From a virus (lineage: Duplodnaviria; Caudoviricetes), in the IMG/VR virus record IMGVR_UViG_3300033069_000956, positions 3,810 to 67,809 of that record: a DNA stretch of 64,000 bases; one strand, written 5' to 3'. Under the pieces are notes generated by a model that ran no database searches, was not told the DNA's origin, and saw only the letters and a program-made list of their open reading frames with translations. Below, piece by piece: positions 5,079 to 20,679 of the stretch (position 1 is its first letter; every line of letters begins with the position of its first letter). Made by a program: the position numbers and the translations under genes.

Positions 5079-8000
5079 ATGGCGATGACGCTTGCTGACG
5101 TTCGTGCGAAGTACCCCCAGTACAAGGACGTCGATGATCAAGCCCTGGCGGACGCCATCTATAACAAGCACTACGCTGGCAAGGATCGGCGCGAGTTCGA
5201 CGCCCGCGTTGGCCTGAAACCCTACCAGAATTTCGGCGAAGCCATCGGCACGGCGGTCGGCAATATCCCCGCCGGCGTCGAGCGGTCCAAATACCTGCTC
5301 GGTGAAATGATTGCCGACACGGCGTCGCAGGCCATCGATCCTCGCCAGCAGATGGGCTTCACCCCGCCGCTCAAGGTTGAGCCGGGCGCGCCAGTGGCGG
5401 ACCTGCTGGCACAGCCCGCCGCCATGGAAATCCCCGCTGCTGGTCCGGGCAATCTCTTGCCAAAGGACATGCAGCGCGCGCTCGGGCGCAAGGCGGCAGA
5501 GGTTTCCCTGAGCCAGCAGCTTCGCCGCGCCGCGCCTGACGCCGCGCTTCAGGCCAACGCCCTCGATGTCGCTCCCGGGTCACTTGAAGAAGGTGTGGCG
5601 GGCGGCGTCGCCGGCGCGGTCGAGATGGCTGCGCCCATGGCCGCGTCGATCCTCGTGCGTAACCCCGCGCCCCTCGTCACCTATTTCACCGCGCGCACGG
5701 CAGGCGATACTTACGGCACGGCCAAGGAAACCGGTGCGCCTTATAACCAGGCCATTGCCGGGGCGGCGCTGAACGCGGCGGCTGAAGCGGCTACCGAAGC
5801 GCTCGCAGGTAAGGTGTTCCTTGACGGCGGCAAGACGCTGGTCGGCAGCGTGCTCAAGGGCGTCGGCACCGAGGCCCTGACTGAAGGCGCGACAGAGGCG
5901 CTGCAGGCGCTGGTTGATTCCGGTGTGCTCGGCGTTGACATGACCCTCACCGACGCCCTGAACCGCGTCAAGACCGCCACAATCGCGGGCGGTATTGCGG
6001 GCGGTATCGTCTCCCCGATCACGCATGTTGCGCGCGGCCCCGGTGAACCGGAAGTCAGCCCGGCCATGGTCACCGCGCCTGAACCGGAACCCGACGCGCC
6101 GATCGAAGACCGTGTCGCGCTGCCCGGCCCGCAGACCATGCTGGCGTTGCCGAGCCCGGAGCAGTTCAAGGCTCCGGAACTGCCGCGCCGCCAGCCCGCC
6201 CCGCCGCGTCGGGAGGAACCCAAGCCCCCGACAGAAGACGAGATCGATTACCAGTCGCGTGTTGCCCTGCAGCGGACCCGGCAGCAGGAAACCGCCGAGC
6301 TCTTGCAGACGGCGCGCGAGACCATCACGCCGCTCGGGACGTTTGATATCAAGGACGTCGACACGCTGGCCGCGCCTGCGCCGGAAACGCGGACGCAGAA
6401 CGGTCAGGTACAGGTCAAGCACGGGCGCAACGGTAAATGGCACAACGCCACGATGACGCCGGACGGGCAGATCGTCAGCCCCGGCGCTGACGCCGACATG
6501 CGCGCCGAGCAGCAGTCTATCGCGCAGCGCATCCGCGCCCATCGTGTCCGCACCGGCCGCCCGGTCGAGGCCCCCATCACCATCGAAGAGATGGCCCGGG
6601 CCAAGGTACCGCAGCGCCAGATCGACGCCGTGATCGCCGCTCGTCGGCCCATGACCAACGGTGGGGCGTTGACGGCGCTCGACATCATGCGTACCGCCGA
6701 CGCCAAGAACATCATCCCGACCGACAGCAATTTCGCCGAGCTGGCTCTGCGCACCACCGGGCAGCGCAACGTGCAGCGCATGACCCAGGCCCAGCTCAAC
6801 GCGCTCAAGACCACGCTCGACGCCATGCCGGCGCACGCCACGCCGGTCACCGTGCCGCTGGCTGAACAGAGCCCGTTCACCGATGAGATGTACGGCAAGG
6901 CCGTCGACGCCATCCGCCAGCAGGGGCGCTATACCGCGGCGGCCATCAAGGACGCGACGGGGCTCAAGACCGTCAAGGATGTTGACGCCGTCCGCGACGC
7001 CATGGTGCGCCGTGGCCAGTTGATCGAGCGCGGCAAGGGCGATTACCGCCTCTATGATACGCTCGGTGTCGAACGCCAGACGGTTCCCGAGGACCTGCCG
7101 CCGGGGGCCTTCAAGGAATACACCATGCGCCGGGTGCCGGTCAGCAAGGTGCGCGTCACGCGCGACGGTAAGTCGGCGGGCACGTTCTCGTCAGCCGCCG
7201 AGGCGCGCGCCGAGGTCAGCAAGATCCGCGCCAAGGACAAGGCCGCCGGCGTCAAGATCGAGCCCGCCGAAGAGACGGCGTGGGGTGTCATGGAGAACCG
7301 CTACGACGAGCAGGGTAACCTGCTCGGGTCGGTGGTGGTTGATTCGCATCGCGACGAGGTCGCGGCGCAGAAGGCGCTCGAACAGTTGAACGCGCCGCCG
7401 GACACCGGCGCGCGTTACACGCAGACCGCCGTCGCGCCGAACCTGTCAACCGACCCCGCTGCCCCGGCGCGCCCCCGCGCACCGATGCCCGCGCCTTTCG
7501 CTGGCCGCCTGCCCGAGATCGTCAAACGCCTGAACGCCCAGGCTCGCGAACGCAAACTGCCGCTGCTCGGCGTGCGCGTGCAGATCAAGCCGAACCTGAC
7601 CGCGCCGGAAGGCGAAGCGGTCGAAGGGTTCTATCTGCGCAAGCTGATCTCGCTGACCGCCCAGAACCTGACCCCTGAAATGTCGACGGACCAGATCGTC
7701 GAAAAGCTCGGCCAGGTCATGGACCACGAACTGATCCACGCCTTGCGGGCCGCCGACGTGCTCGGCCCAGAGACCGACGGATGGAAGACCATTGTCCGCT
7801 ACGCCAAGCGCGCCAAGCGCCCCGGCAGCACCGAGTCCTATCTGGACTGGGCCCGGCGCAACTACGCCAATGTCCCTGGTTACGAGACCAATGATAGCAT
7901 CGAGGAAGAGGCCATTGCCGAGGCGTTCCGGGCGTGGGCGTCGAACCGCCGTAACGTCACCGGCAAGCCCGCCACGGTCTTCCGGCAACTGGTCGAATGG

Positions 8001-11000
8001 TTCAAGCGCCTGATCAACACCGTGCCGCAGGAAGCCTTCATGGCTATCGAGAGCGGGCAGATGGTGCTCGACGCCTTGCGCCCGCCCGGCGGCGATCTGC
8101 CGCGCGCCAAAGCGACGCGCCAGATGGAAGCGGCCGCGACAGGGGTCAGCGAAGCGCAGCAGGCCAAGGATGAAAACCTTGTGCGCGTGCGCAGCCGCGA
8201 ATATCTGCGGGCCCGTGAACAGGCGCGCGACGATCGGTTCGGCAGGTCCGGCCCCAAGACCGTACTCGGCACGACGCCGTCCAAGACCTACAATGTGGGC
8301 GAGGTCGGCGACGTCGCGCTGGCGCGATCCTTTGCCGATACCTACCGGCAACAGAACGGCGTCAGCGGCGAGCGGCCGATGACGCTGCTGCCCGTTGACG
8401 CCAATTACATGAAGCGCGTCGCTGACGCGCAGGCCAAGGGCCAGCACTCCCCCGGCGATCCGGCCGTGGCCAAGGCGTACCGCGCGCTGATCGACGAAAC
8501 GCGGCACATGTTCCAGGCCCTCGGCCCGATCGAGGTTACTGCATGGGACGGGAACGGCGCGCCCTACGCCAGCCCGGCGGCCATGCTGGGCGACATCGCG
8601 GCCGGCAAACTCACCCTGCGCCTGTCCGACGAGATGTTCGGGCCGGGCGCGGATAACCCCGGGCATCCGCTCAACACCGCGTCGGGGCTCAAGACCACCG
8701 ACGATCGGGTGCTGACCAACAACGACCTGTTACGCATCGTGCATGACGTCTATGGCCACGGCCAGTCCGGGTTCCGCGACGACGCGCGCGGCGCCTACAA
8801 CGCCTATCATGAACATGCGCGCCTGCTCTCGCCCGAGGCCCGCCAGGCGCTGGCCACCGAGACGCTGGGCCAGCGCGCATGGCAGGAGTTCGGCCAGCAC
8901 CTGCGCCGCCGCGACGGCACCGTGCCGCGTGAGACGGACGTCGACTATCTGCCACCGAACCAGAAAGAGTTCGCCGAGCAGAAGGCGTTCCTTATCGACG
9001 AGGATTTGATCAGCGCCGATCCCGGTTGGGCTATGGCCGAGAAGGCTTCGGGGGTGGAGGAGACACCGCGCTTCATGGTTGGCTACCACGGCACGCCACA
9101 CAAGGTTGACCGGTTCAGCAAAGATAAGATCGGGACCGGCGAAGGCGCACAGGCCTACGGCTACGGGCTGTATTTCACAAGCAAGAAAGAGGTCGCGGAT
9201 CATTACCGACAGGCGCTTTCGTACAAAAGCACGGTGAAAGAATTTAGAGACGCATTACCCGACGACGCTGATTTTGACGAGGTAATGGACCTCATTGGGA
9301 CGGGCAGGTTCACGCCTTACCAAGAACGACTGCTGAAAGCCCTGAACGCCGACGGATGGCTGGGGTTCGACTATCCGTCGCAGGCTATATCTGCTGCGTA
9401 CAGCAAGAATGTCGCAAACTGGGACCCGTCGCAAGAACTGCTTGACGCCGTTGCGGGTACCGGAAATCTGTACAAGGTTGACCTCCCAGAAGACAACGAA
9501 CTGATGAACTGGAACGCCACGCTCGGCGCGCAGCCAACTGGGGTGCGTGCTAAGCTGGAAAGTTTTGGCCTGGATATGGGCCAGCTTGCCGCCGACCTGT
9601 TTGAAGGTGACGCCGCGGACCTGACCGGCGAGATGATCTACGAGGCTATCGCTGCGCAGGTAGCGCCAAGCGCCGACGGCAGCGGTAACCCTGCCGCGGC
9701 ATCTGCCGCGCTGGCTGCGGCGGGCATCCCTGGGCACACCTATACCGGAAAGGACAGCGGCGCAAAGAACTATGTCATCTACGATGACAGCCGCATCCAG
9801 ATACTCGAAGAGAACCCGAAGTTCTCCCGCTTCGACGAAGACCTCCCCGGCGGGCGCCTCTACGGCAACCCGGACCGCAGCCCCGGCGGCGCGCTGAGCA
9901 AGCCCGACACGCCCACCCCGGCCTTCACCAACGCCCGCCCCGCCAACCGCTTCTTTGGCGGCGAGATGGCCGAGCATCAATTGCAGATGGTGCGCACCGG
10001 CGAGCGGGGCGCGACCATGATCTATCTCAACCCGGAGGATTACCTTGCTCTTGCCGATACGCCTGAGAACCCGGAACAGGGAACGTTTGACGCGGCTATC
10101 GCGCAAGGCTTCAAGTTCTCAACTCTCCCGTCCCTCGTCATCGACGGCTACGCTGGTAACGTCCGTGCTGTTGCCGCAGACGGGGCTTATGCTGGACGTG
10201 CACTCGCTGCCGGGGGAGACGCCATCCCTGTCGTACTCTATCCGAAAAAGGGGGAATCCCTCGGCCTAGTCACGGCGCTCGAAGCGCCCGACGGTTCGCG
10301 TGTGCCGTGGCCCCGCGACGGGCGGCAGGAGAACTTCCCCGAGGTTCGCGGGCCACGTTACAGCGTGGGGTCTGAGGAGTTCCGGCGCTGGTTCGGCAAT
10401 AGCGCCGTTGTCAATGCGGACGGTTCTCCGAAGGTGGTATTCCACGGCAGCCCGACCCGGTTCACGGCGTTCGATAAGAGCAAGATCGGCACTTCGACCG
10501 ACACCGGTGACATCGGTGCGGGGTTCTATTTCACGCCGAACTTCATGCACGCGCAGGTCTATGGCGCGGATGAAGATGGTGTGCAGCGCAGCGAAAATGT
10601 CGCGCGCGTTTTCCTGTCGATCCAAAACCCCTTGCGCGAGTTCACGCCGGACTTCATGGCCGCCGTCGATCAGCGCGTAGGCGCTCAGCAGATGCCAGCC
10701 GAGACCAACAGTTGGACGTCCGTCGGTTCGTCGCCCGAAGGGTTCGCCGCTCAAGCTCGTTCGCAGGCGATCACGGCGGAAGCCTTAGCGCGCGGGTACG
10801 ACGGCGTGTGGATGAACAATCCCCGCTTCGGCTATGAAGAGCTCGTCGCCTTCGAGCCGGCTCAGATCAAAAGCGCGGTGAACAACAACGGCCAGTACGA
10901 CGCCACCAACCCGGACATCCGCTACAGTATCAACGCCCCGTTCGGCGAGCGCGTCCCCGACACCGAGCCGGGGCCGATGCGCAACATCGTGCGCCAGCGG

Positions 11001-13775
11001 GTCGACGGCTGGGTTGGGCGGGCGCTCCAGAACATTGGCCGGAACAAGCGCAGCCTACCCGTGGTCGGCTCGATCTTCGACGCGCGCGTCAAGCTCCAGG
11101 ACAAGATGCTCTCGATCAAGGAAATGATCGAGCAGATCGGCGACGCCGGCGGGAACATCGATGATCTCAACGACACTTACATGCTCGAGCAGTTGTACCA
11201 CGGCAAGGTGTTCGACCAGATCCAGCAGCGCGAGCAGGACCTGCAGGTGCCGTTGCTCGAGGCGCTCAAGGCGGCCTATGACGGGCCGAACAAGGTCACG
11301 CCTGCCGACTTCGAAGACTATCTCTACGCCCGCCACGCGCCGGAGCGGAACGCCTATCTGCGTGCCCGCGGCGCGACGGACCCGAACCCGTCCGGCATGA
11401 GCGACGCCGAGGCGTCCGCCATCCTTGACCGGCTGGCCATTGACGGCAAGCTCCCCGACGTCGAAGCCCTGGCCGCCATGGCGGACGCCATCACGGCGGA
11501 CACCACGCGCACCCGTGTCGAAGCCGGGCTGATCAGCGAAGAAGCCGCCGCGTCGAGCCCCTACCAGTACTACGTGCCGCTGCGCGGTTTCGCCGAAGAG
11601 GACCTCGATCCGGGTAACCCAAGCGAGAACCAGACCCGGGCCCGCTCCGGCAAGGGCTTCTCGGTCGGGGGCCGCGAAGACCGTACCGTTACCGGCCGTG
11701 GCCGCAAGGCAGGCGACGTGCTTGGGCACCTGTTCCTGCAGAACACCGAAGCGGTGATCCGCGCGCAGAAGAACGAAGTGGCGATGAGCTTCATGCGGCT
11801 CTTGCAGCAGAATGAAAACCTTGGCTTCGGGTCGATCCTCAAGACCGCGCCGACCCGCCGTGTCGTCGGCGCCAACGGCATGATCCACGAGGCGGGCGAT
11901 CCCTCGTACCGGCAGTCGCCGGACATTGTCACGGCCAAGTGGAAGGGCAAGGAAGTCATCGCGCGCGTCAGCGACCCCCGTCTGGCGCGCGCCATCAAGT
12001 CCGACTACATTTCGTCGTCGAGTGACCTTGTCGCCGCGCTGAACGAGATGACGCGCAAGCTGAAATTCCCCGCCGCGTGGAACCGTATTCAAGCAGCGGT
12101 CAACACTGGTTGGAACCCGATCTTCTTGCTCACCAACTTCATCCGCGATTTTCAAACCGCGAGTATTCTGGCCGAGCAATACGGCATCCAAGACCTAGGC
12201 AAGAACATCCGTGGTAACGCCTTCAAGGCGATGGGCGGCATCAAAGAAGTGCTGCGCGAGGGCACGGAGAATAGCGAATGGGCGCAGGCTTTCCGTGAGA
12301 TGCAGAGGGCGGGGGGAACGACGGAGTTTCTCGGCATCAATGATCTTGAAGCGCAAATCGAGCGTATTCGCAAATCGGTTACCAGCGCCGGAGTAAGCCC
12401 TACGCTCCGACAGGTGCAGAATTATCTCGGCCACGTCGGCAAGTTCGTCGGTGACTATAACAAAATAGCCGAGAACGCCTTTCGCTTGGCGGCCTACAAG
12501 GCCGCCAAGGACTCTGGCGCGTCCACCTCGCAGGCAGCATTCCTCGCCAAGAACCTGACCGTGAACTTCAACAAGGGCGGCGAGCTTAAGCCGTTCATGA
12601 ACGGTTGGTGGCTGTTCTACAACGCTTCCACGCAAGGTAGCGCGGTGCTGCTAAACGGCATCAAGAACAAGCGTGTCCGCCGGATAATGTACGCCGTCAC
12701 TGCTGGCGGGGTGGCAATGGATATCATAAATCGGGCGCTGTCAGGTGATGATGACGAGAACGGCGTCACCGACTATGATGACGTGCCAGATCACGTCCTC
12801 CAGAACAACTTCGTGATGATGGACTGGCTTGGCCTGCTGCCGAAGTCGAAGACCGGCGGTATGAGCTACTTCTCATTCCCGATGCCTTACGGTTTCAATG
12901 CCTTCTACAATACCGGCCGGAACATGAGCGCCGCGGTCTCCGGGTCTCCAGCCTTCGGCGCCACGATTCCAGAGCGCATTGCTAACCGTAGCCTCGACAG
13001 CATGCTCGCGTTCGCCGACGCTTTCAACCCACTCGGCGGGGTGCAAGACGTTCTGAATTTTATCGCGCCGACGATTGCCGATCCGTTCGTGGACCTGCGC
13101 ATCACGAACAAAGATTTCTCTGGGGCTACGATTGTACCGGAACGGCCGAGCTTCGGCGTACCCGTGCCTGATAGCCAAAAGTACTGGTCTAATACCGGCG
13201 ACATTCCGGTGTGGGTGGCCGAGCATTTGAACCGCCTTACCGGTGGTAACGAGGTGCGTAAAGGTTGGATGGACGTGTCACCGGAAACGCTGCAGTATGG
13301 TTTCGATTATGTGCTGGGTGGCGTCGGGCGGCTCACCGGTAAGGCTTACGACGTCGGGGCTAAAGTGGTAGCTGGCGACACAGAGGACCTGGAGATCAGT
13401 GCCATTCCGCTGGCTAATCGGTTTGCGGGGTCGGTCAGTAGCCGAAACAACACCGAGCGTTACTACGATATAGCCAAAGAAGTGGAGACGATCAAAGAAG
13501 AACTAAAAATGTTCTCAGAGACCGGGCGCATCGACGAAGCGCGCTACACGGCGGCGCAGAACCCGGTCGAGGTCAGCCTCATCGGTATGTTCGAGGACGC
13601 CCAAAAAGCGCTCGGCGAATTGCGTAAAAAGCGCAAGGAGGTCGAGGCGCTCGACACAATGCCCGACAAGCAGAAGCGAGAGATCGTGCGCCAGATCAAG
13701 GCTCAGCAGGACGAGATAATGCGCCGAGCTAACACGATATATTTCCAGCAGAAAAAGGCTATGATAGAAAGGTAG
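5079..13775 (+). CDS. Large polyvalent virion/ejection protein (metallopeptidase HExxH, two ART-PolyVal-like domains, LPD38-like C-terminus)
   Basis: 2898 aa; HELIH at 7725-7739 plus EEAIAEAF; YHGT...GTGEGAQAYGYGLYF (~9084) and FHGS...GAGFYFT...FLSIQNP...GYDGV (~10440); NLTVNFNKGG...LFYNAS..G...PYGF C-terminal domain. Confidence 0.8.
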   Translation: MAMTLADVRAKYPQYKDVDDQALADAIYNKHYAGKDRREFDARVGLKPYQNFGEAIGTAVGNIPAGVERSKYLLGEMIADTASQAIDPRQQMGFTPPLKVEPGAPVADLLAQPAAMEIPAAGPGNLLPKDMQRALGRKAAEVSLSQQLRRAAPDAALQANALDVAPGSLEEGVAGGVAGAVEMAAPMAASILVRNPAPLVTYFTARTAGDTYGTAKETGAPYNQAIAGAALNAAAEAATEALAGKVFLDGGKTLVGSVLKGVGTEALTEGATEALQALVDSGVLGVDMTLTDALNRVKTATIAGGIAGGIVSPITHVARGPGEPEVSPAMVTAPEPEPDAPIEDRVALPGPQTMLALPSPEQFKAPELPRRQPAPPRREEPKPPTEDEIDYQSRVALQRTRQQETAELLQTARETITPLGTFDIKDVDTLAAPAPETRTQNGQVQVKHGRNGKWHNATMTPDGQIVSPGADADMRAEQQSIAQRIRAHRVRTGRPVEAPITIEEMARAKVPQRQIDAVIAARRPMTNGGALTALDIMRTADAKNIIPTDSNFAELALRTTGQRNVQRMTQAQLNALKTTLDAMPAHATPVTVPLAEQSPFTDEMYGKAVDAIRQQGRYTAAAIKDATGLKTVKDVDAVRDAMVRRGQLIERGKGDYRLYDTLGVERQTVPEDLPPGAFKEYTMRRVPVSKVRVTRDGKSAGTFSSAAEARAEVSKIRAKDKAAGVKIEPAEETAWGVMENRYDEQGNLLGSVVVDSHRDEVAAQKALEQLNAPPDTGARYTQTAVAPNLSTDPAAPARPRAPMPAPFAGRLPEIVKRLNAQARERKLPLLGVRVQIKPNLTAPEGEAVEGFYLRKLISLTAQNLTPEMSTDQIVEKLGQVMDHELIHALRAADVLGPETDGWKTIVRYAKRAKRPGSTESYLDWARRNYANVPGYETNDSIEEEAIAEAFRAWASNRRNVTGKPATVFRQLVEWFKRLINTVPQEAFMAIESGQMVLDALRPPGGDLPRAKATRQMEAAATGVSEAQQAKDENLVRVRSREYLRAREQARDDRFGRSGPKTVLGTTPSKTYNVGEVGDVALARSFADTYRQQNGVSGERPMTLLPVDANYMKRVADAQAKGQHSPGDPAVAKAYRALIDETRHMFQALGPIEVTAWDGNGAPYASPAAMLGDIAAGKLTLRLSDEMFGPGADNPGHPLNTASGLKTTDDRVLTNNDLLRIVHDVYGHGQSGFRDDARGAYNAYHEHARLLSPEARQALATETLGQRAWQEFGQHLRRRDGTVPRETDVDYLPPNQKEFAEQKAFLIDEDLISADPGWAMAEKASGVEETPRFMVGYHGTPHKVDRFSKDKIGTGEGAQAYGYGLYFTSKKEVADHYRQALSYKSTVKEFRDALPDDADFDEVMDLIGTGRFTPYQERLLKALNADGWLGFDYPSQAISAAYSKNVANWDPSQELLDAVAGTGNLYKVDLPEDNELMNWNATLGAQPTGVRAKLESFGLDMGQLAADLFEGDAADLTGEMIYEAIAAQVAPSADGSGNPAAASAALAAAGIPGHTYTGKDSGAKNYVIYDDSRIQILEENPKFSRFDEDLPGGRLYGNPDRSPGGALSKPDTPTPAFTNARPANRFFGGEMAEHQLQMVRTGERGATMIYLNPEDYLALADTPENPEQGTFDAAIAQGFKFSTLPSLVIDGYAGNVRAVAADGAYAGRALAAGGDAIPVVLYPKKGESLGLVTALEAPDGSRVPWPRDGRQENFPEVRGPRYSVGSEEFRRWFGNSAVVNADGSPKVVFHGSPTRFTAFDKSKIGTSTDTGDIGAGFYFTPNFMHAQVYGADEDGVQRSENVARVFLSIQNPLREFTPDFMAAVDQRVGAQQMPAETNSWTSVGSSPEGFAAQARSQAITAEALARGYDGVWMNNPRFGYEELVAFEPAQIKSAVNNNGQYDATNPDIRYSINAPFGERVPDTEPGPMRNIVRQRVDGWVGRALQNIGRNKRSLPVVGSIFDARVKLQDKMLSIKEMIEQIGDAGGNIDDLNDTYMLEQLYHGKVFDQIQQREQDLQVPLLEALKAAYDGPNKVTPADFEDYLYARHAPERNAYLRARGATDPNPSGMSDAEASAILDRLAIDGKLPDVEALAAMADAITADTTRTRVEAGLISEEAAASSPYQYYVPLRGFAEEDLDPGNPSENQTRARSGKGFSVGGREDRTVTGRGRKAGDVLGHLFLQNTEAVIRAQKNEVAMSFMRLLQQNENLGFGSILKTAPTRRVVGANGMIHEAGDPSYRQSPDIVTAKWKGKEVIARVSDPRLARAIKSDYISSSSDLVAALNEMTRKLKFPAAWNRIQAAVNTGWNPIFLLTNFIRDFQTASILAEQYGIQDLGKNIRGNAFKAMGGIKEVLREGTENSEWAQAFREMQRAGGTTEFLGINDLEAQIERIRKSVTSAGVSPTLRQVQNYLGHVGKFVGDYNKIAENAFRLAAYKAAKDSGASTSQAAFLAKNLTVNFNKGGELKPFMNGWWLFYNASTQGSAVLLNGIKNKRVRRIMYAVTAGGVAMDIINRALSGDDDENGVTDYDDVPDHVLQNNFVMMDWLGLLPKSKTGGMSYFSFPMPYGFNAFYNTGRNMSAAVSGSPAFGATIPERIANRSLDSMLAFADAFNPLGGVQDVLNFIAPTIADPFVDLRITNKDFSGATIVPERPSFGVPVPDSQKYWSNTGDIPVWVAEHLNRLTGGNEVRKGWMDVSPETLQYGFDYVLGGVGRLTGKAYDVGAKVVAGDTEDLEISAIPLANRFAGSVSSRNNTERYYDIAKEVETIKEELKMFSETGRIDEARYTAAQNPVEVSLIGMFEDAQKALGELRKKRKEVEALDTMPDKQKREIVRQIKAQQDEIMRRANTIYFQQKKAMIER

Positions 13776-13806
13776 GGCCGGGAGCGTTGACGCGCTCAAC
13801 CGGCCC
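13776..13806 (+). other. GC-rich hairpin between giant gene and HNH gene
   Basis: GGCCGG-GAGCG...GCTC-AA-CCGGCC inverted repeat. Confidence 0.4.
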
Positions 13807-13832
13807 TGACATCAAAGCCGGGAAGGGCTCCG

Positions 13833-14339
13833 ATGAACATCAATGACGTACCACATCGTGGGGATTTTGCACGCGTTCTCTCTGCGTTGAAACGACGGCT
13901 CGTAGTAAACGCTGTGACCGGGTGCCATGAATGGACCGGACGGATGAAGGCCGGGGGCTACGGGGTGTACGTTCTCGATGGCCGCCAGCTATTAACCCAC
14001 CGACTTATGTACGTCGCTTATGTTGGCGGCATCCCTAACGATCCAGTCACCGGGGCGCCGCTTCTTGTCCTGCACGAATGCGATAACCCGCCGTGCTGCA
14101 ACCCAGCCCACCTGTTTCTGGGCACGCATAAGGACAACCACGACGACATGCTGGCTAAAGGTCGGCGGGCGCTGATGAAGGGTATCGCCAATGGCCGAGC
14201 AGTGCTGACCGAGGATGACGTTCGGGCTATCTTTAACGACCCTCGGAGCGCGCCTACTCTCGGAGACATCTATGGCGTAACGCCGGGCGCCATCCTGCAT
14301 ATCAAGCACCGACGTACATGGTCCCACTTGAACCTGTGA
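13833..14339 (+). CDS. Free-standing HNH homing endonuclease
   Basis: CHEWTG...GYG...LTHRLMY...VLHECDNPPCCNPAHLFLGTHKDNHDD, followed by C-terminal HTH. Confidence 0.88.
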   Translation: MNINDVPHRGDFARVLSALKRRLVVNAVTGCHEWTGRMKAGGYGVYVLDGRQLLTHRLMYVAYVGGIPNDPVTGAPLLVLHECDNPPCCNPAHLFLGTHKDNHDDMLAKGRRALMKGIANGRAVLTEDDVRAIFNDPRSAPTLGDIYGVTPGAILHIKHRRTWSHLNL

Positions 14340-14345
14340 CCCGGG

Positions 14346-14528
14346 ATGTTCGAGGATGCTCAGAAGTCGCTGCAGGATCTGCGCAAGCAGCTCAAGGAAG
14401 TGCGCGCCAACGAACAACTGCCGGCCGCGCAGAAACGTGAGATCGAGACGCGCATCAAGGAACAGCAGGACACGATAATGGCGCGCGTCAACACAATCTA
14501 TTTCGCGCAGAAGAAAGGCGCCCCCTAA
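14346..14528 (+). pseudogene. Orphan second copy of the C-terminal ~60 codons of the giant polyvalent gene
   Basis: MFEDAQKSLQDLRKQLKEV... matches residues encoded at 13587-13775 at 37/60 positions. Confidence 0.75.
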
Positions 14529-14959
14529 GGGTAGGCCGTCGTCACGGTTATGAACCACGGGTGGCAGCGGTGGAGGAAGCGTAGGCGTAGCCCGTCGACC
14601 TTCTCGTCACCGACGAACCACAGCCGGGATACCTGGGTGCCCGTGCCCTTGGTTACGAGGTTATCGACTGACCCGATGACAGGCTCGAAGTCGATCGGGA
14701 CGCCCTTGCGGTCCATGGAGAGGCCGAGGATTTCGCAGTCGCGGTTCTTGGTGTAGCTCATCCGGACGTGCAGGCCACCCTCTACGGGCGTTTGCTGGAC
14801 GAAGGTCACCTTGGATGTGACCGGCATGACAAAGCCTTCCATGGGTGGCAGCAACGGACCCCAGACGGGCAGCATGGCCAGCGCCAGCAGCGCGATCATG
14901 ACGGGCCAAGTCCAGGTGATATCGACGGCCAGCTTAGCTCCCGGGGACACGTAGACCAC
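14525..14959 (-). CDS. Membrane-anchored hypothetical protein in lysis cassette
   Basis: N-terminal hydrophobic helix WPVMIALLALAMLPVWGPLL; overlaps upstream gene. Confidence 0.55.
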   Translation of the reverse strand: MVYVSPGAKLAVDITWTWPVMIALLALAMLPVWGPLLPPMEGFVMPVTSKVTFVQQTPVEGGLHVRMSYTKNRDCEILGLSMDRKGVPIDFEPVIGSVDNLVTKGTGTQVSRLWFVGDEKVDGLRLRFLHRCHPWFITVTTAYP

Positions 14960-15170
14960 CTCCTACCACAAAAGCGACAAAGGCCAGCCCAATGCCGCTG
15001 ACCAATAGCCAGGTCAGCCGCGACAGGATGGTCTCTATCTTGTCGAGGCGCATGTGCGTGCTCTTCATACCTTCTTCGCGGGCGGCCAGGCTCAGCCGTA
15101 TGTTGACCACGTCATCTGCCAACTCTTCCACCCTACGGGACAGTCGATCGTAATCTGTTAACGGAGGCAT
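14934..15170 (-). CDS. Small coiled-coil + C-terminal TM protein (XhlA-like/holin candidate)
   Basis: 78 aa, coiled-coil then LTWLLVSGIGLAFVAFVV; in lysis cluster. Confidence 0.5.
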   Translation of the reverse strand: MPPLTDYDRLSRRVEELADDVVNIRLSLAAREEGMKSTHMRLDKIETILSRLTWLLVSGIGLAFVAFVVGGGLRVPGS

Positions 15171-15259
15171 GTGCTGCTCTGCTCATGTTAGCTCAACGGG
15201 AATGGGCACGATCAGGTTGCAGCGCGGCATAGCTATGGACGGGCGCAGTCCGTCCGGGT

Positions 15260-15478
15260 TCAGCACGTCGCCTTGTAGACGGCGTTATTGGCCTTTGTGG
15301 CAAAAATAGTCTCGTCGGTGTCTTTCTCCGACCAGCGCACCGGGACGTAGGCCCCCGGCGTGGTCTCGGTGCCGCAGTAAAAGGCACGGATTCCCTCGGT
15401 ACCGGTTCGGTTGGTCGCGCACCCGGCCAGAAGCAGGCACAGGGCCGCGACACTAATCGCGTTTGAAACCGTCGTCAT
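15260..15478 (-). CDS. o-spanin-like lipoprotein (Rz1-like)
   Basis: MTTVSNAISVAALCLLLAG|C lipobox; overlaps 3' end of the i-spanin candidate. Confidence 0.7.
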   Translation of the reverse strand: MTTVSNAISVAALCLLLAGCATNRTGTEGIRAFYCGTETTPGAYVPVRWSEKDTDETIFATKANNAVYKATC

Positions 15479-15794
15479 CGCGCAGATCCTCCGGATGTTC
15501 GCGTTGTTTGCGCTCGGCCTCGGCGCGGGCTTTCGTGGCCTTGGCAATGAGTTGGTCGGCGGCGCGCATGTCCGCCGCGATCTTGTCCTGCCAGCCTTTC
15601 TGGCGGGCCCGCGACAACAGCGCCCCGGCTCCGACAACGGCAAAGGCGGGCACGACGAAGGGGCGCACGCGCTCCCAACCAAAGACCTTGACGGCCAGCA
15701 GGAACAGCCCGGCCAGTGTCGTGGCCGCAATGGCGAGCTGCGCCCACCACGGCAGCATGTAGACCAGAACATCCCAAAGGCTGTAGCCGAACAT
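15453..15794 (-). CDS. i-spanin-like membrane protein (Rz-like)
   Basis: TGATG coupling to endolysin; N-terminal TM segments then charged helical tail. Confidence 0.62.
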   Translation of the reverse strand: MFGYSLWDVLVYMLPWWAQLAIAATTLAGLFLLAVKVFGWERVRPFVVPAFAVVGAGALLSRARQKGWQDKIAADMRAADQLIAKATKARAEAERKQREHPEDLRDDDGFKRD

Positions 15795-16624
15795 CACGAA
15801 GTGGCCCGGATGCGCCGGAAGGCGTAATAGCCGCCGAGCCCGATGACGACGATGATGGCCAAGGCAATGGCCAGCCGGATCGGGTCGAGCCCGGAAGTGA
15901 TCACCGTCCCGGCGCCAGTGGCGACCGCGCCGCCAGCGGGCAGCAGCACATCGGGCTTGAGCCACGCATCGACCGCGCCGGGTTCAGCCTTGGCTGCGAC
16001 CTGGGCGTCGAGGACGGTTGACATGTCAGGAGTGGCCGCGACCTTGCGCACCGGCTGCTTGGCGGCCATGGCCAGGGCGTTACCGATAACGCCGGGTTGA
16101 TCGGGCCATTGGCCCTTGGGGTCCTTGCCGGTGACGCGGATGGTCCAGCCGCGACCATTGGCCGAGAAGCCCTGCGCACCCTTGAGCGCCTGCAGGAATT
16201 TCATGCGGGCGGCGCAGTAGTCGGCGATCAGTTTGCGCACCCCGCCAGGATAGGCATCGACGGCGGCCATCGTCGTCTCGCCGAGCCAGCCATCCTGCTT
16301 GGCCCCGAGGACTTTCTGCAATGTCTTGACGGCGCGTTGCGGGCCGGAGTTCACACCAAAATCGAAGGCCGCGTAATCGAGGCCGAGCGGCAGAACGTCG
16401 CCGCCCGACGGGCCCCAGTAACTCTTGCGGTAGATGTCTTCGGCTTCGCGGATGGTCAGCGCCTTGACCTGCGCGGCGGTGACGGAAGGGACGCCCCGAT
16501 GCTTGGCCAGGGTCTTGTGGGTGATCCCGTATTTGGTTGGGCCACCCCGGTCAGTCCTGGCGTTCACATAGCCGCCTTCATGACCAAACATCAGTTCAAG
16601 GCTGTCGTCCAGGTTCTCGCGCAC
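15794..16624 (-). CDS. Endolysin, glycoside hydrolase family 108 with C-terminal hydrophobic tail
   Basis: GHEGGYVNARTDRGGPTKYGIT, AAFDFGVNSGPQRA, GRGWTIRV motifs; GTG start with GAGGA. Confidence 0.9.
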   Translation of the reverse strand: MRENLDDSLELMFGHEGGYVNARTDRGGPTKYGITHKTLAKHRGVPSVTAAQVKALTIREAEDIYRKSYWGPSGGDVLPLGLDYAAFDFGVNSGPQRAVKTLQKVLGAKQDGWLGETTMAAVDAYPGGVRKLIADYCAARMKFLQALKGAQGFSANGRGWTIRVTGKDPKGQWPDQPGVIGNALAMAAKQPVRKVAATPDMSTVLDAQVAAKAEPGAVDAWLKPDVLLPAGGAVATGAGTVITSGLDPIRLAIALAIIVVIGLGGYYAFRRIRATS

Positions 16625-16642
16625 GCGGTGTCCTCACAGTGC

Positions 16643-18994
16643 TTATCGCCTCTGGAACTGCACCACCTGGCCTGTCGGCCGTACTGGTCTGACCAGCGGT
16701 CCGTTCCTGTCGATTTCATTTAACATTTTCTCGGGGTCGCTGACAACCTCGACGGGTGGACGCCCGACAGCGCGGGCGACGCGGAGCTTGCCGTCAATTT
16801 CAACGCGGTCCGGAATGGTGGTGATGGTGCGCGTGGCGCGCATGAACATGCGCCCCACAATCTGCGCCCAATCGTCGGGGACATCGGTGGCCACCCGGAG
16901 CATCATGTCTTCGATGACCATGACCACCTGCTCCTTGACCAGCACGGTGTCCTTGAACTGGCGCATGGCTTCGCCGAACAGGCGATCCAGCTCCGACGCG
17001 CCGGCGTCCACCATGTCGGCCTTGGCGGCGGTCATGGGCGGCGGTGCGTAAGGGCTATAGCCGGACAGGTCGACCTTGAGCAGTTCATTGACGAAGGCCC
17101 CGATGTTGGCCGGGTTGGTCTTCCATGTGTGAAAGACATCCCAGTACGCCTGCGGCATGGGCGAGCCGTTCTCAAGGATGGCGAGGCGCCGGTCTTCACG
17201 CGGCAGGACGACCGAGTCCATGTGGTTGGTCATCACCAGGATCGAACAGAACGACCGGCCCCGGGTATTCTTGGCACCCTTGCGCAGGATGTGCATGTGC
17301 GTTTCGCCCGGCTCGATCACTTCCTTGAGCCGTTCGTAAGCGTTCGAGCGCACCTGCCATTTCGAGGTATTCGGCGCGGGCTCCTGCGCTTCGTTGACGA
17401 CGGCGATCAGGTTGTCGGCCAGCCATTCGTTGTACTGGCTCTGGTAGGTCGTGCCGGCCAGCGTCTTGAAGTCAATCTCGCCGACCAGTTCGGGGGAGAA
17501 CATAGCCCGGATCAAGGAGACCAGCGAGCCGCGGCCGGTGCCGAAATTGGCGTGCGCCACCATGATGATGCCGGGGCCGCGCGTCGCCGGGTGCTGGTAC
17601 TTGTAGGAGAGCCACTGCATGAAGTACCGGCGCTCGGCCTCCACGGGCAGGAGGTGCTCGATGAAGTCGAGGCCCACCGACGGATCGCCGTTCGTCGGCA
17701 ATGGCGGCAGCGGGCGGTAGGTGTTGATGTGGTGGGCGTCGCCCTCGGTATAGATCGGGGACGGCATGTCCGGGCGCATCTCGGCCGAGACGGCATCGAA
17801 CCGATCCTCGTGCTGCATGAACAATTCCGCCAGGCGCGTCACCCGCAAGCCGCCTTTAGGGCCAGACGATTCCTCGTAATACTTTTGCATCAGGTTATTG
17901 AAGCCCTTGACCGTCATCGGTGTGTTGGGGCGGCGCAGGTCATAGATCATATCGACGCCTTCGATATAGGCGTAGCGCCGCAGGGCCTTGGCGAGATTGA
18001 CGTCGAGCGTGTCGCGGGGGTCGAGGTCGTCAGGGGCGAGCGCTGGGGTGTCGGGTTCCTGTGGCTTCAGGAACCGCTCGGCGAGCAGGGCCCCGAGCCG
18101 GTTGAGCGCGGCGGTGTCGTCGGCGTCCTCGGGGAAGTGCGAGGTGTAGGTGCCGTGATCCGACACGCAGACCCGGTCGTCAACGAGGCTGATCATGCCA
18201 GCCCATGACCCGGTCGTCGGGCGCAGGGCATCGACCTTGCAGCGCAGCACTTCGCCCTGTGGGCTGTGGCGCAGCGCCTCGCCGATCTCTTCGATGGTCA
18301 TCTCGCCCATGTCGTGGACATCAAAGACCATGTCGGGGGTCAGGTCATAGGCGATGGTGTAGCCGTTGTCGGTACCGCCGGCGGGCGACTTGCGCTCGAG
18401 GCCGCGCTGCTCGAAGAACCGGATGGCGAAGTCCTTGACCGCGTCGGCCTGGGCCTTGGTGATCTCGGGCAGGTCCATGTATTGGGCATCGAGCAGCGAG
18501 GTCACCGGCCACTTGTAGGCGGTGTTGGCATCGCGCTGGCCGTAGGCGGCGAACTGGCAACCGTGGCCGAGGATCTCAACGGCGAAGCCCTTGTGGTCCG
18601 CGGGGGCGTCGGGCGGCATGAAGTGCCCGGTGGTGCGCTTGCCGATCTTCTCGGCTGTCCGATAGACCCAAAGCTCGCGCGGCGGCATGCCGATGCGCAC
18701 GAACGGGCTCTCCGGCAGGATGCCCTGCTCGACCACGGCGTCGAGCAGGTCGTTGAGCAGGTCCTTGTCATCTACATCGATGTCTATGGCAATGACGTCA
18801 CCGCAACGGATACCGGTGTCCTGCGACCGGCGGGCGCGGGCCCACTCGGTTGTCTGGATCATCTCGGGCGTGACGTCGACCGTGCTCCACCCGGCGAGCA
18901 GGCACATTTTCGATCTGTTGGGGAGCGGCGTGAAGCCGTTCTCGTAGAGCTTCAGCCGGATAGCGGTGCGGTCGCGGTGGGCGTCGAGTGTCAT
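16643..18994 (-). CDS. Bifunctional primase-polymerase fused to SF3/DUF5906-like helicase
   Basis: ATG 18994 (ATGA coupling); N-terminal GFTPLP...TGIRCGDVIAIDIDV; Walker A-like ANFGTGRGS, VVNEAQ, MTNH. Confidence 0.85.
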   Translation of the reverse strand: MTLDAHRDRTAIRLKLYENGFTPLPNRSKMCLLAGWSTVDVTPEMIQTTEWARARRSQDTGIRCGDVIAIDIDVDDKDLLNDLLDAVVEQGILPESPFVRIGMPPRELWVYRTAEKIGKRTTGHFMPPDAPADHKGFAVEILGHGCQFAAYGQRDANTAYKWPVTSLLDAQYMDLPEITKAQADAVKDFAIRFFEQRGLERKSPAGGTDNGYTIAYDLTPDMVFDVHDMGEMTIEEIGEALRHSPQGEVLRCKVDALRPTTGSWAGMISLVDDRVCVSDHGTYTSHFPEDADDTAALNRLGALLAERFLKPQEPDTPALAPDDLDPRDTLDVNLAKALRRYAYIEGVDMIYDLRRPNTPMTVKGFNNLMQKYYEESSGPKGGLRVTRLAELFMQHEDRFDAVSAEMRPDMPSPIYTEGDAHHINTYRPLPPLPTNGDPSVGLDFIEHLLPVEAERRYFMQWLSYKYQHPATRGPGIIMVAHANFGTGRGSLVSLIRAMFSPELVGEIDFKTLAGTTYQSQYNEWLADNLIAVVNEAQEPAPNTSKWQVRSNAYERLKEVIEPGETHMHILRKGAKNTRGRSFCSILVMTNHMDSVVLPREDRRLAILENGSPMPQAYWDVFHTWKTNPANIGAFVNELLKVDLSGYSPYAPPPMTAAKADMVDAGASELDRLFGEAMRQFKDTVLVKEQVVMVIEDMMLRVATDVPDDWAQIVGRMFMRATRTITTIPDRVEIDGKLRVARAVGRPPVEVVSDPEKMLNEIDRNGPLVRPVRPTGQVVQFQRR

Positions 18995-20679
18995 TCGGCG
19001 GCCTTCATATTGCGCGATACGGTAGCTTCGGCGGCAGCGATGCGCGCGTCGGCGATGTCGTAATAGCTGGCGTCCATCTCGATGCCGATGAAGCTGAAGC
19101 CTTCCAGCACAGCGCCGCGGCCAGTGCTGCCGGAGCCCATGAACGGGTCCAGCACCGTGCCGCCTGGCGGGGTAACAAGACGGCACAAGTACCGCATGAG
19201 ATCGGTCGGCTTCACCGTCGGGTGAGTGTTCTTATAGGCGGTGGTGCGCCCTTCACTGATTGAGCTAGGCTTGCCGCTGGTGCCGTTGGCCGTGGCAAAA
19301 GTGACGACCGGTTTTTCGAGGGTCGTGAGGCCGTCGTCGCGGTCTTTCTTGGACGCCTTGGCGGCGTAAGCGAAGCGCTTACCGGAGCCCAGACCCCCAG
19401 CTTCCGTACTCTGCGGCGTGCATTTTAATGTGACAGGCGCGGCAGAGCCATCGGATCTCCAGTGGCTTATCGTAATCGTCGTGATGCCGGTCGGCTCGGT
19501 TGCTTCCGCAACGCTCGCACGGGCATTGAGTAGGAAAGGCTTTACGTGCGGCGACTCGAGCGAGCACCCGCTTTCGAAACTCAGGATCGTCGCGATAGCG
19601 GCTTCGCTTATCCGCTTTAACTCGTTCGGCGTGACGGTCGTAGAAAGACCCGTCAAATCGTTTAACTGCCTGCCCCCGTACGACGCCCAAGTTACTGCAT
19701 CGCTTAGAGCAGAACCGACGGCTCGGTTTGACAGGCTGGAAGAGTTGTCCGCAGTGTTCGCAAGCTCTGGGTTCCATTGGCCGAGTATGGCCTTTGCTCG
19801 CCAGATAAGCAACTCCCCTTCGTCGTGTTCTGCACTCTTAAAGAAGCGGGCGGCGCTGCCGCTGTCATCGCGCCGCGCGCCGGGCTTCATTTTGAAACCA
19901 ACCGTCCCGTCGTTCGGATCGTTTGCGCTGGCTTCGCCTTCCCGGCCGTTGCCGCGCTTCATATTGCCGTAGACGTTCTGGGTCTTGCGACTCTCGCTGC
20001 TGCTGCTGGCGTCGGCGATCTGGCCGCGCGCCTGCGGGAAGGCGGCGAGCACTTCGTCGCTGCCATCGTGGATGATGTTGGCGGGCCAGCGGCCCGGCTT
20101 CATCGTGCCGTGGTATTCGACGCCACCCTCTTCAGGCCGCCAGTTACCGCCGGTTTTGTCGAGGGTCGCTCCGGGTTTCAGACGCTTTACAGTGTATTCA
20201 CCGCCCTGCGCATCGTCGCCGTGGATGCGGGCGCCGTCGATGTTCAACGCCCCGACGCCGTGCTTCGCCAGATTGGCGGACACCGTTCCGATCAGCGGCT
20301 TGCGCGCGACGACGATTGGCTCGTGCGCTGGCTTGAGGGCTGTGCCCCAACCTTCCCAGTCGCCGTCTTGGTTGGAAGATTTCGGAAACCCGCTGCCGTA
20401 AATCCACATGATCTGATCACGGATTTCGAAGCCGGCGTCTTCAATGGCGACCGCCATGCGGTGGTATGTCCGACTGCCGCCGAACGACAACAGGTGCCCA
20501 CCAGGTTTGAGAACGCGCAGGACCTCTTGCCAGATGCCGATGTCCGGAACGTCGTAATCCCAATGCTTACCCATAAACGCCAACCCGTATGGCGGGTCGG
20601 TGACGACCGCGTCAATCGAACTCGCGTCAAATTCCTTGAGCACTTCGCGGCAATCGCCTTCGATGATTTCTACAGGCAT
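18991..20679 (-). CDS. DNA N6-adenine/N4-cytosine methyltransferase (beta class) with internal 157-aa insertion
   Basis: ATG 20679 after AAAAAGGAACC; TDPPY motif [19 protein letters not shown] motif I. Confidence 0.9.
19369..19839 (-). mobile_element. In-frame insertion in methylase carrying an out-of-frame HNH gene
   Basis: Removing these 471 nt restores [14 protein letters not shown]; no intein termini; HNH ORF nested in another frame. Confidence 0.75.
19379..19777 (-). CDS. Overprinted Zn-finger/HNH endonuclease (hidden in methylase)
   Basis: CEHCGQLF...RFCSKRC and [34 protein letters not shown]. Confidence 0.82.

Follow-up and report, generated by a model that had tools for sequence, protein, structure and literature searches.

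We propose with good confidence that a free-standing HNH homing-endonuclease locus lies at the 3′ end of a polyvalent-protein gene in the 64,000-nt stretch of phage DNA analysed here (the window), and that the end of this gene has been replaced. Branch lengths, base composition and contig breakpoints indicate that the giant gene is very probably chimeric today, with a native 5′ part joined to an imported 3′ part of about 590 codons. Two copies of the gene end flank the HNH gene, and the upstream copy is in frame with the giant gene. The features of the locus are collected in Table 1.

Table 1. Features at the 3′ end of the giant gene (positions in the window).
Feature	Position	Strand	Remarks
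Giant phage polyvalent protein gene	5079..13775	+	ORF, 2898 aa; Pfam LPD38
Putatively imported (co-converted) gene-body part	12009..13586	+	aa about 2311-2836; discordant ancestry, GC3, contig breakpoints
Upstream tail copy (tail′)	13587..13775	+	last 62 codons + stop, in frame with giant gene
GC-rich hairpin	13773..13808	+	starts at giant gene stop codon; no U tract
Free-standing HNH_3 endonuclease gene	13833..14339	+	168 aa; Pfam, PHROG
Downstream tail copy (tail″)	14342..14528	+	native last 60 codons, judged by similarity; ORF 14346-14528, 60 aa
Convergent neighbour gene	14525..14959	-	144 aa; right-hand native flank

The giant gene and its neighbours

The open reading frames of 2898, 168 and 60 aa that an earlier note on this DNA had listed were borne out. 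The giant protein has an LPD38 domain at aa 2565-2778 (Pfam, E 4e-34) and two ART-PolyVal stretches, and 554 homologues of its C-terminal part were found at E ≤ 0.001. The upstream neighbour of the gene is DNA-ejection-protein-like. The combination of LPD38 with effector domains in one giant polypeptide, encoded in a virion/ejection gene block, is that of the phage polyvalent proteins, and the product is probably packaged in the capsid and injected.

The predicted fold of 13765-13840, which contains the hairpin, has an energy of -37.5 kcal/mol (z -5.3), equalled by none of 200 shuffles. The hairpin falls inside a segment that is common to the window and to an allele found in two other metagenome runs, X2 and X3. 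A simple promoter/terminator scan gave nothing useful, and its terminator rule misses a hairpin lacking a U tract such as this one. By eye, no Shine-Dalgarno-like sequence precedes the ATG of the ORF in the downstream copy. On the right-hand side, a homologue of the convergent 144-aa gene (43% identity) lies directly 3′ of the giant gene in a relative, L003, and the downstream copy abuts the 144-aa gene just as the single tail does in L003.

The HNH_3 gene

The HNH protein matches Pfam HNH_3 above the curated cut-off (E 3e-8) and PHROG endonuclease families with E values down to 3e-30. Its homologues at 43-46% identity align with 99% of the protein, which makes the long start the likely one. 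In our own reading of the alignment, the motif block HxCDNPPCCNPAHLFLG...N..D is consistent with the homologues, and the gene appears to be intact. It is present as a single copy in the genome. It runs from an ATG of its own to a separate stop, beyond the end of the giant gene and the hairpin, and lies outside any intron or intein. The closest homologue found is 46% identical; a peptide-pattern search of IMG/VR gave no close relative, and a PDB sequence search gave no match at E ≤ 0.1. The remnant of the gene end begins immediately after the HNH stop codon, which lies 2 nt before 14342.

Two copies of the gene end

The earlier note had reported that the end of the giant gene recurs after the HNH gene, and this repeat is real. 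The copies at 13587-13772 (62 codons) and 14346-14528 have 37 identical residues among 58 aligned (BLASTP E 4e-23), the same count as the 37/60 noted before, over a slightly different length. Both copies open with cgg(t/g)ATGTTCGAGGA, the sequences just 5′ of it do not align, and the 11-nt ATGTTCGAGGA is the longest exact match in the alignment of the two.

The single tail of HNH-less relatives resembles the downstream copy, as had been anticipated. Against the P0007 tail, that of the closest relative, this copy has 85-86% identity and the upstream copy 63-67%; the corresponding values for the L003 tail are 60% and 38%. In the tail tree, the downstream copy is sister to P0007 and the upstream copy groups with P0009 (support 99/95). 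Since the downstream copy is so similar to the P0007 tail, and since a contig from run X2 joins the gene body directly to it, the downstream copy is, on these comparisons, the native gene end, displaced. It is probably untranslated.

The putatively imported tract

The tract from 12009 to 13775 measures 1.77 kb and runs on into the hairpin spacer and the intact HNH_3 gene. The mismatch of the window against the majority of its five closest relatives rises from 8.9% to 33.5% at a change-point at aa 2311, corresponding to nt 12009. The window is 87-92% identical to these five at aa 1980-2300 and only 65-68% identical at aa 2320-2836, where the five are 82-100% alike among themselves and the outgroup P0019 is 73-76% identical to them. 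The terminal branch of the window is tenfold longer in the tract than upstream of it (0.47 vs 0.048), and a 6-codon insertion accompanies the divergence.

The base composition changes there too: GC3 is about 0.717 in 12000-13772, while the 1.16 kb before it has 0.886 (chi-square p 6e-10). GC3 is 0.817 in the rest of the giant gene and 0.65-0.86 in the other genes of the phage. Thus, the impression of more A/T third positions in the tract holds relative to the preceding part of the gene, but the contrast that the earlier note drew with the downstream copy does not, as no significant difference separates the two 60-codon copies (0.783 vs 0.726, Fisher p 0.53).

An AU test on the tract did not reject the window as sister of its usual kin (p 0.60), so the description of the tract as foreign depends on branch length, GC3 and contig breakpoints, and not on topology. 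By these measures, the gene from nt 12009 to its stop is shown to have an ancestry unlike that of the rest of the gene. The donor lineage was not found, the best match to the tract being 68% identical, and a blastn search of GenBank phages with 11500-15500 yielded just three short matches to the HNH motif.

The giant gene is also mosaic elsewhere, with no nuclease nearby: identity and GC3 both dip at about 9.1-9.7 and 10.4-10.85 kb, and X2 contigs replace these segments. P0009 likewise has a swapped tail.

Alleles in wastewater metagenomes

A 1556-nt contig assembled independently from run X1, which is probably the source sample, covers 12998-14553 without a difference and at an even depth of about 7. 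Because this separate contig spans the region, and because an 11-nt match is too short to mislead a k-mer assembler, an assembly chimera is unlikely.

An HNH-less allele was found in wastewater run X2. In one contig, 38 other letters link 13544 to 14342, and the gene stays in frame and unchanged in length; another departs from the window at 12008 and continues as VSTSNDLVNA, which is of the native type. HNH-less phages with an uninterrupted native tail thus occur in the same habitat. Comparing the two sites ourselves over about 50 nt around the junction of the HNH-less allele, we counted about a dozen differing positions. The uninterrupted X2 contig, together with the discordant tract of lower GC3 abutting the HNH gene, agrees with the earlier proposal that a replacement C-terminus came with the HNH gene and displaced the original.

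A third allele, in runs X2-X4, has the same tract and tail with no remnant, the upstream-type tail being its sole tail. In X2 and X3 contigs, 12567-13843 is matched at about 96%, followed by 490 other letters, and the match resumes from 14529, in X3 with 0 differences over 125 nt. Since this remnant-less allele carries the tract and tail, the imported tail serves as a real gene end. The 490-nt replacement looks like a divergent HNH gene, from a likeness confined to about 10 residues at each end. The tract is common, at about 96%, to these remnant-less relatives, and for this reason tract acquisition and remnant formation may have been two events. Replacement is supported, but a single arrival of the HNH gene with a new C-terminus, as first suggested, is too simple for a population in which relatives about 96% alike lack the remnant and carry another 490-nt sequence.

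No second genome with the window's HNH allele and remnant was recovered; X4 has faint depth over the HNH gene, and the close relatives seen are remnant-less. In X2 and X3, most of the window's HNH allele has no cover at ≥85% likeness, which does not show that it is absent there. Neither the junction of the divergent allele nor the uninterrupted native junction turned up in exact-pattern scans of IMG/VR.

Among 83 relatives with DNA (7 nearer and 76 distant loci, a count that leaves out the five closest relatives, P0004-P0009), none has two tails and each has one. The HNH gene is absent from L003 and the 82 other loci, and no HNH was found within 3 kb at any of the 76 distant loci, for which a positive control was run. 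A stand-alone small gene resembling the tail was not found among 1.8 billion representative proteins. Either HNH-less relatives with both copies or a conserved independent tail gene had been named as evidence against displacement; neither was seen.

Proposed mechanism and alternative explanations

We suggest that the locus arose during co-infection. The putative nuclease would have cleaved an allele lacking the HNH gene, plausibly close to the start of the remnant at the conserved ...SLIG|MFED... coding site, and the HNH-bearing genome would have served as the template for repair. To the left, resection and homologous invasion would have copied about 1.6 kb of the donor gene body together with the donor tail, keeping the 2898-aa protein complete; the donor tail is presumed to be resistant to the putative nuclease. 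The right-hand join would have fallen where the recipient's own tail starts, either because the donor already bore such a remnant as a homology arm, as in the mechanism of yeast WHO elements and fungal mORFs, or by non-homologous joining at the break. The old tail would now be a silent remnant. Precedents for these steps are described in PMC7282813, PMC3630166 and PMC2988022.

By analogy with the WHO elements, the stranded native tail could also serve as the right homology arm in a mobile unit composed of the imported tail, the HNH gene and the old tail, which would home into the SLIG|MFED coding site, although we consider this doubtful. If it were so, exchange would recur at SLIG|MFED, accounting for tails discordant with the gene body, such as that of P0009, and homing endonucleases would actively drive the diversification of the C-termini of injected polyvalent proteins.

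The role of the nuclease is read from its sequence, the giant gene is mosaic in other places with no nuclease nearby, in segments that X2 contigs replace, and P0009 has a swapped tail as well. The layout might be a recombination scar with the HNH gene as a passenger, left by homology-facilitated illegitimate recombination at the start of the tail between co-infecting relatives, the break not being made by the nuclease. We think this improbable, because the HNH stop codon 2 nt before the remnant and the end of the tract at the HNH gene reproduce the layout of proven homing elements (PMC7282813, PMC3630166), and because phage homing endonuclease genes are known at exchange boundaries (PMC10448857).

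The copies are in frame with each other at a spacing of 759 nt, a multiple of 3, and both fall inside one four-member clade of the tail tree, as would be expected if the gene end had been duplicated in tandem in situ, the translated copy had diverged fast and the HNH gene had been inserted between the copies later. However, the copies are not nearest kin of each other, a single clade of the two being disfavoured by the AU test (p 0.037), and the divergence reaches 1.6 kb 5′ of the duplicated part, with the GC3 shift and the 6-codon insertion. Single-tailed relatives of both kinds exist, some with the upstream-type tail and others with the downstream-type one, and the absence of two tails from all 83 relatives also makes such a duplication very improbable.

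The earlier note had also raised group I splicing as a way to swap C-termini. An intron at 13587-14345, of group I or another type, would give the downstream tail when spliced and the upstream tail when unspliced; the t at 13586 and g at 14345 were confirmed, excision of 759 nt would keep the frame, and the HNH-less allele has the predicted spliced form. But U...G ends are a 1-in-16 coincidence, and a search of 13000-15000 on both strands gave no Rfam intron at E ≤ 10, the only matches being two to eukaryotic small RNAs at chance level. The segment is nearly all coding, which would leave a ribozyme core only the 57-nt spacer and 6 nt after the HNH gene, and the remnant-less allele uses the upstream tail alone, with no downstream 'exon'. 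Splicing is thus extremely unlikely, and the proposal is not supported. Finally, strains with both tail types co-occur in wastewater samples and the window is a metagenome-assembled virus, but a chimeric assembly of two such strains is scarcely credible given the X1 contig, the lack of any exact word longer than 11 nt common to the aligned copies and the unique sequence of the junction at 14339-14345.

Comparison with known systems

Replacement of a gene end by a homing locus of this arrangement is already known from the fungal mORF gene hybrids and the yeast WHO elements. The WHO elements at yeast FBA1 (Coughlan et al. 2020, eLife, PMC7282813) similarly have an endonuclease gene just 3′ of the target gene, discordant phylogenies for its 5′ and 3′ parts, and sensitive (empty) and occupied alleles side by side. 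However, WHO proteins are intein-like LAGLIDADG-zinc-finger proteins acting in the eukaryotic nucleus during meiosis, whereas here an HNH_3 protein is found in a phage. At FBA1, the onset of divergence coincides with the cleavage site and the start of the fragment, while here the divergence reaches 1.57 kb further upstream. Cleavage and allele specificity have been demonstrated for WHO6 (PMC7282813); here they are presumed.

The mORF gene hybrids of fungal mitochondria, in atp6 of Allomyces macrogynus and in atp6, atp9, cox2 and nad3 of Glomus (PMC3630166 and work cited there), also show a C-terminal duplication around an endonuclease ORF, with the inserted copy in phase and expressed with the gene. 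There too, close relatives cluster with the native copy while the inserted one falls elsewhere, and both remnant-keeping and full-replacement cases are known. The mORF enzymes are LAGLIDADG or GIY-YIG proteins, often fused in frame, whereas here the HNH gene starts independently, beyond a stop codon and hairpin; the setting is a phage genome, and the co-converted tract is much longer.

Among phages, ICP1 has homing endonuclease genes at genetic-exchange boundaries (Barth et al. 2023, PMC10448857), where, as here, the nuclease gene marks the edge of a tract with an ancestry unlike the rest of the genome; a term search of that article showed no duplicated or displaced gene end. The free-standing Seg and Mob endonucleases of T-even phages, which spread by intronless homing (review PMC2988022), resemble the present HNH gene in lying between phage genes, in being variably present in relatives and in co-converting their flanks. 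The review has clean replacement through homology on both sides and describes no stranded duplicate gene end, and our literature search, of incomplete coverage, found no published phage case of a displaced or stranded 3′ gene end.

Work on yeast and fungal mitochondria has already established the mechanism, so the conceptual advance is modest. The locus is a well-documented phage example in which a homing endonuclease locus would have rewritten the terminus of a large gene of functional importance while leaving it unbroken, and public wastewater metagenomes show all three allele states: empty, occupied with a remnant and occupied without one. It offers one concrete route by which giant polyvalent proteins may become mosaics. 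The native ...CTGATCGGGATGTTCGAGGA... junction is, as a guess, a candidate target site of this uncharacterised HNH_3 enzyme. In T-even phages, differing endonuclease alleles may share one locus, as the divergent 490-nt allele suggests for the site described here.

Results

The source IMG/VR virus record is 67.8 kb long and rated complete (CheckV), and the window covers nearly all of it. The giant phage polyvalent protein has an LPD38 domain at aa 2565-2778 and two ART-PolyVal stretches (Pfam). Its gene is preceded by a DNA-ejection-protein-like gene, and a minus-strand block converges on it from the other side; this block codes for an endolysin and a primase as well as for a 144-aa protein of unknown function. 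A 2811-aa LPD38 protein is contained in phi24B virions, as found by proteomics (bioRxiv 10.64898/2026.04.10.717836).

Features of the giant gene and of the region downstream of it
Feature	Position	Strand	Remarks
Giant phage polyvalent protein gene	5079-13775	+	2898 codons
GC hairpin	13773-13808		very stable, not U-tailed (without U tract); starts at giant gene stop codon
HNH_3 gene	13833-14339	+	168 codons, intact
Downstream tail ORF (remnant)	14346-14528	+	60 codons
Unknown 144-aa gene	14525-14959	-
Endolysin-like gene	15794-16624	-
Primase-like gene	16643-19186	-

The hairpin (fold of 13765-13840, -37.5 kcal/mol, z -5.3) may act as a terminator, stabilise the RNA or belong to the mobile unit. 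It falls inside the stretch common to the HNH-variant allele described below. The longer, 168-aa form of the HNH ORF is indicated because homologues cover 99% of it; the source gene call (P0123, 131 aa) begins at an internal methionine, at 13944 rather than 13833. Six bases separate the HNH gene from the downstream ORF. All three ORFs, those of the giant gene, the HNH and the remnant, share one reading frame, which is about a 1-in-9 coincidence. The two tail copies start 759 nt (253 codons) apart, and between the HNH stop TGA and the remnant ATG lie two in-frame codons, CCC GGG.

The downstream ORF repeats the last 62 codons of the giant gene, with 37 of 58 residues identical (E 4e-23), confirming the claim of the earlier note that the HNH gene is flanked by two versions of this gene's 3' end. 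Both copies open with cgg(t/g)ATGTTCGAGGA, and the sequences upstream of that start do not align. Which copy is native? The tail of P0007, a protein relative, is 85-86% identical to the downstream copy and 63-67% to the upstream copy; for the more distant locus L003, the values are 60% and 38%, respectively. The tail tree puts the downstream copy next to P0007 and the upstream copy next to P0009, another relative (99/95), and a constraint grouping both copies is disfavoured (AU p 0.037). Furthermore, the single tail at L003 abuts a homologue of the unknown 144-aa gene, just as the downstream copy abuts that gene in the window.

A search with the last 589 residues of the giant protein gave 554 relatives at E<=0.001, the five closest being P0004 and P0006-P0009 (in the C-terminal part, P0005 has the same sequence as P0004 and P0006). 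Over aa 1980-2300, the window is 87-92% identical to these five and nested among them. Over aa 2320-2836, the five are mutually 82-100% alike and the window is 65-68% identical to each, so that the outgroup P0019, at 73-76%, is nearer to them than the window is. The terminal branch of the window is 0.47 in this part vs 0.048 upstream. In a single change-point fit, the break falls at aa 2311 (nt 12009), with a mismatch rate of 8.9% before it and 33.5% after it, and a 6-codon insertion unique to the window follows immediately. At this point GC3, too, falls from 0.886 (10839-11999) to 0.717 (12000-13772; p 6e-10), although GC3 alone is not decisive, because the genes of this phage span 0.65-0.86. 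The tail identities, the tail tree, the abutment at L003 and the discordance of the tract together indicate that the gene end native to this lineage is the downstream copy and that the upstream copy is part of an imported 1.77-kb tract reaching up to the HNH gene.

The last 60 residues of P0009 are of the window's imported type (99/95 in the tree), and its gene body, which shares 82-84% identity with that of its kin, is of the native type; this identity collapses at the site SLIG|MFED, where the remnant begins in the window. There is a hint here of a recurrent exchange point and recurrent tail swapping in the family, and no more than a hint, since tails generally vary.

At each of the seven nearer loci (L003-L008, L010) there is a single tail, and an HNH is absent. 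We also took 80 more distant LPD38 loci from IMG/VR, 76 of them with a complete gene end and at least 500 nt downstream; the 76 lack second tails, no HNH_3-like ORF lies within 3 kb of any of them, and the same pipeline recovers both in the window as a positive control. A search of 1.8 billion representative proteins gave a single stand-alone tail match of that length, which comes from the window itself; in the other hits, the matching part is the C-terminal end of a far longer protein (254-2966 aa), and several of these proteins are giant homologues already known. Thus, neither of the two things named in the earlier note as contrary to its reading, HNH-less relatives with both copies or a downstream copy that is an independent conserved gene, is found, since the relatives' loci are single-tailed and tail matches elsewhere lie only in long proteins.

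Contigs of four public sequencing runs were aligned to window 9000-17000. One of these runs, X1, is probably that of the source sample; the wastewater metagenomes X2-X4 come from three further studies. A separately assembled 1556-nt contig of X1 matches 12998-14553 with zero differences, and this reproduction of the arrangement makes an assembly chimera scarcely credible. An X2 contig matches the window on its left only at 13510-13544, continues with 38 other letters and joins at 14342. Together with the four letters that follow, these 38 make 42, as many as the bases of 13545-13586, so the reading frame is kept. The product reads ...NPVEVRLIGMFEDAQKS...; the native uninterrupted junction reads ...CTGATCGGGATGTTCGAGGAT..., and the window's own upstream-tail site ...CTCATCGGTATGTTCGAGGAC... 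This contig is an uninterrupted, HNH-less gene continuing into the downstream-type tail, and the empty allele exists. Together with the P0007 and L003 identities, the tail tree and the L003 neighbour, it bears out the proposal that the downstream copy is the displaced original end. Another X2 contig equals the window as far as 12008 and continues with VSTSNDLVNA, which is native-type sequence as in P0007; this confirms the left breakpoint at base level.

A third allele is seen in X2 and X3 (and X4, judged from loose ends). Over 12567-13843, a stretch that takes in the tract, the upstream tail and the hairpin and ends 11 bases into the HNH ORF, its identity to the window is about 96%. After 13843 it has 490 other letters, and the match resumes at 14529 (0 differences in 125 nt in X3), without any remnant of the old tail. 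The 30 letters visible at each end of the replacement translate as MNIN-YIPYQWDFLR and QGRTWKHDR-stop, where the window HNH has MNIN-DVPHRGDFARVL and HRRTWSHLNL-stop. On the strength of these few residues, the 490 letters probably encode a divergent, equally long homologue of the HNH. The tract is common to a small clade of phages, about 96% identical to one another, that differ in nuclease allele and in survival of the old tail.

Discussion

The comparisons show chimeric ancestry, the positions of the joints and three alleles. We suggest that the HNH would cut the empty allele, that the break would be repaired from an occupied genome and that leftward resection would leave the long co-conversion tract. 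The right-hand join at 14342 could arise in one of two ways: from a donor already equipped with such a remnant, which would serve as homology arm as in the WHO and mORF mechanism, or through a non-homologous join at the break; by eye, TGA and C-GGGATG occur in common around this joint. Cleavage by free-standing T4 endonucleases takes place hundreds to thousands of bases away from the nuclease genes themselves, with co-conversion of the flanks (PMC2988022), so a target site within the giant gene is plausible.

The closest known systems are the yeast WHO elements (PMC7282813) and the fungal mitochondrial mORF gene hybrids (PMC3630166). In both, as in the window, the 3' end has been replaced, an endonuclease gene is present and the native end is displaced, and both show the same phylogenetic discordance. 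Fungal mORFs are also often in phase with the host gene, as the HNH and remnant ORFs are here. The window differs in its HNH_3 enzyme, which has its own start behind a stop and a hairpin, in its phage genome and 2898-codon target, and in a much longer co-converted tract. Our literature search found no published phage example of a displaced native gene end beside an endonuclease.

ALTERNATIVES

It is unlikely, though the best of the alternatives, that the HNH is a passenger at a joint made by ordinary mosaic recombination: elsewhere in the giant gene, at about 9.1-9.7 and 10.4-10.85 kb, modules have been swapped with no nuclease present, but the layout of the window is that of proven homing elements. 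In-situ duplication of the gene end is very improbable, as it fits neither the tail tree, nor the 1.6 kb of extra divergence, nor the two single-tail alleles. Next to no weight can be given to an intron at 13587-14345 whose splicing swaps the C-termini, be it a group I intron, as the earlier note had offered, or another kind. The U at 13586 and the G at 14345 are real, but such ends are expected by chance once in 16. Searched against Rfam at E<=10, the stretch 13000-15000 matches no class of intron, and the would-be intron is almost wholly coding sequence. Moreover, the remnant-less allele uses the upstream tail on its own; this tail works as the sole gene end, and there is therefore no need for splicing to the downstream copy.

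At 9100-9700 and 10400-10850, identity to all close relatives is down to 8-45% and GC3 dips. X2 contigs have 489 other letters in place of 10397-10845 and skip 9074-9824. These segments look like effector-module swaps, with no nuclease gene adjacent. The X2 and X3 relatives also carry 536 extra letters at window 16588-16602, between the endolysin-like and primase-like genes. Either the relatives gained these letters or the window lost them, and a further mobile gene may be involved.
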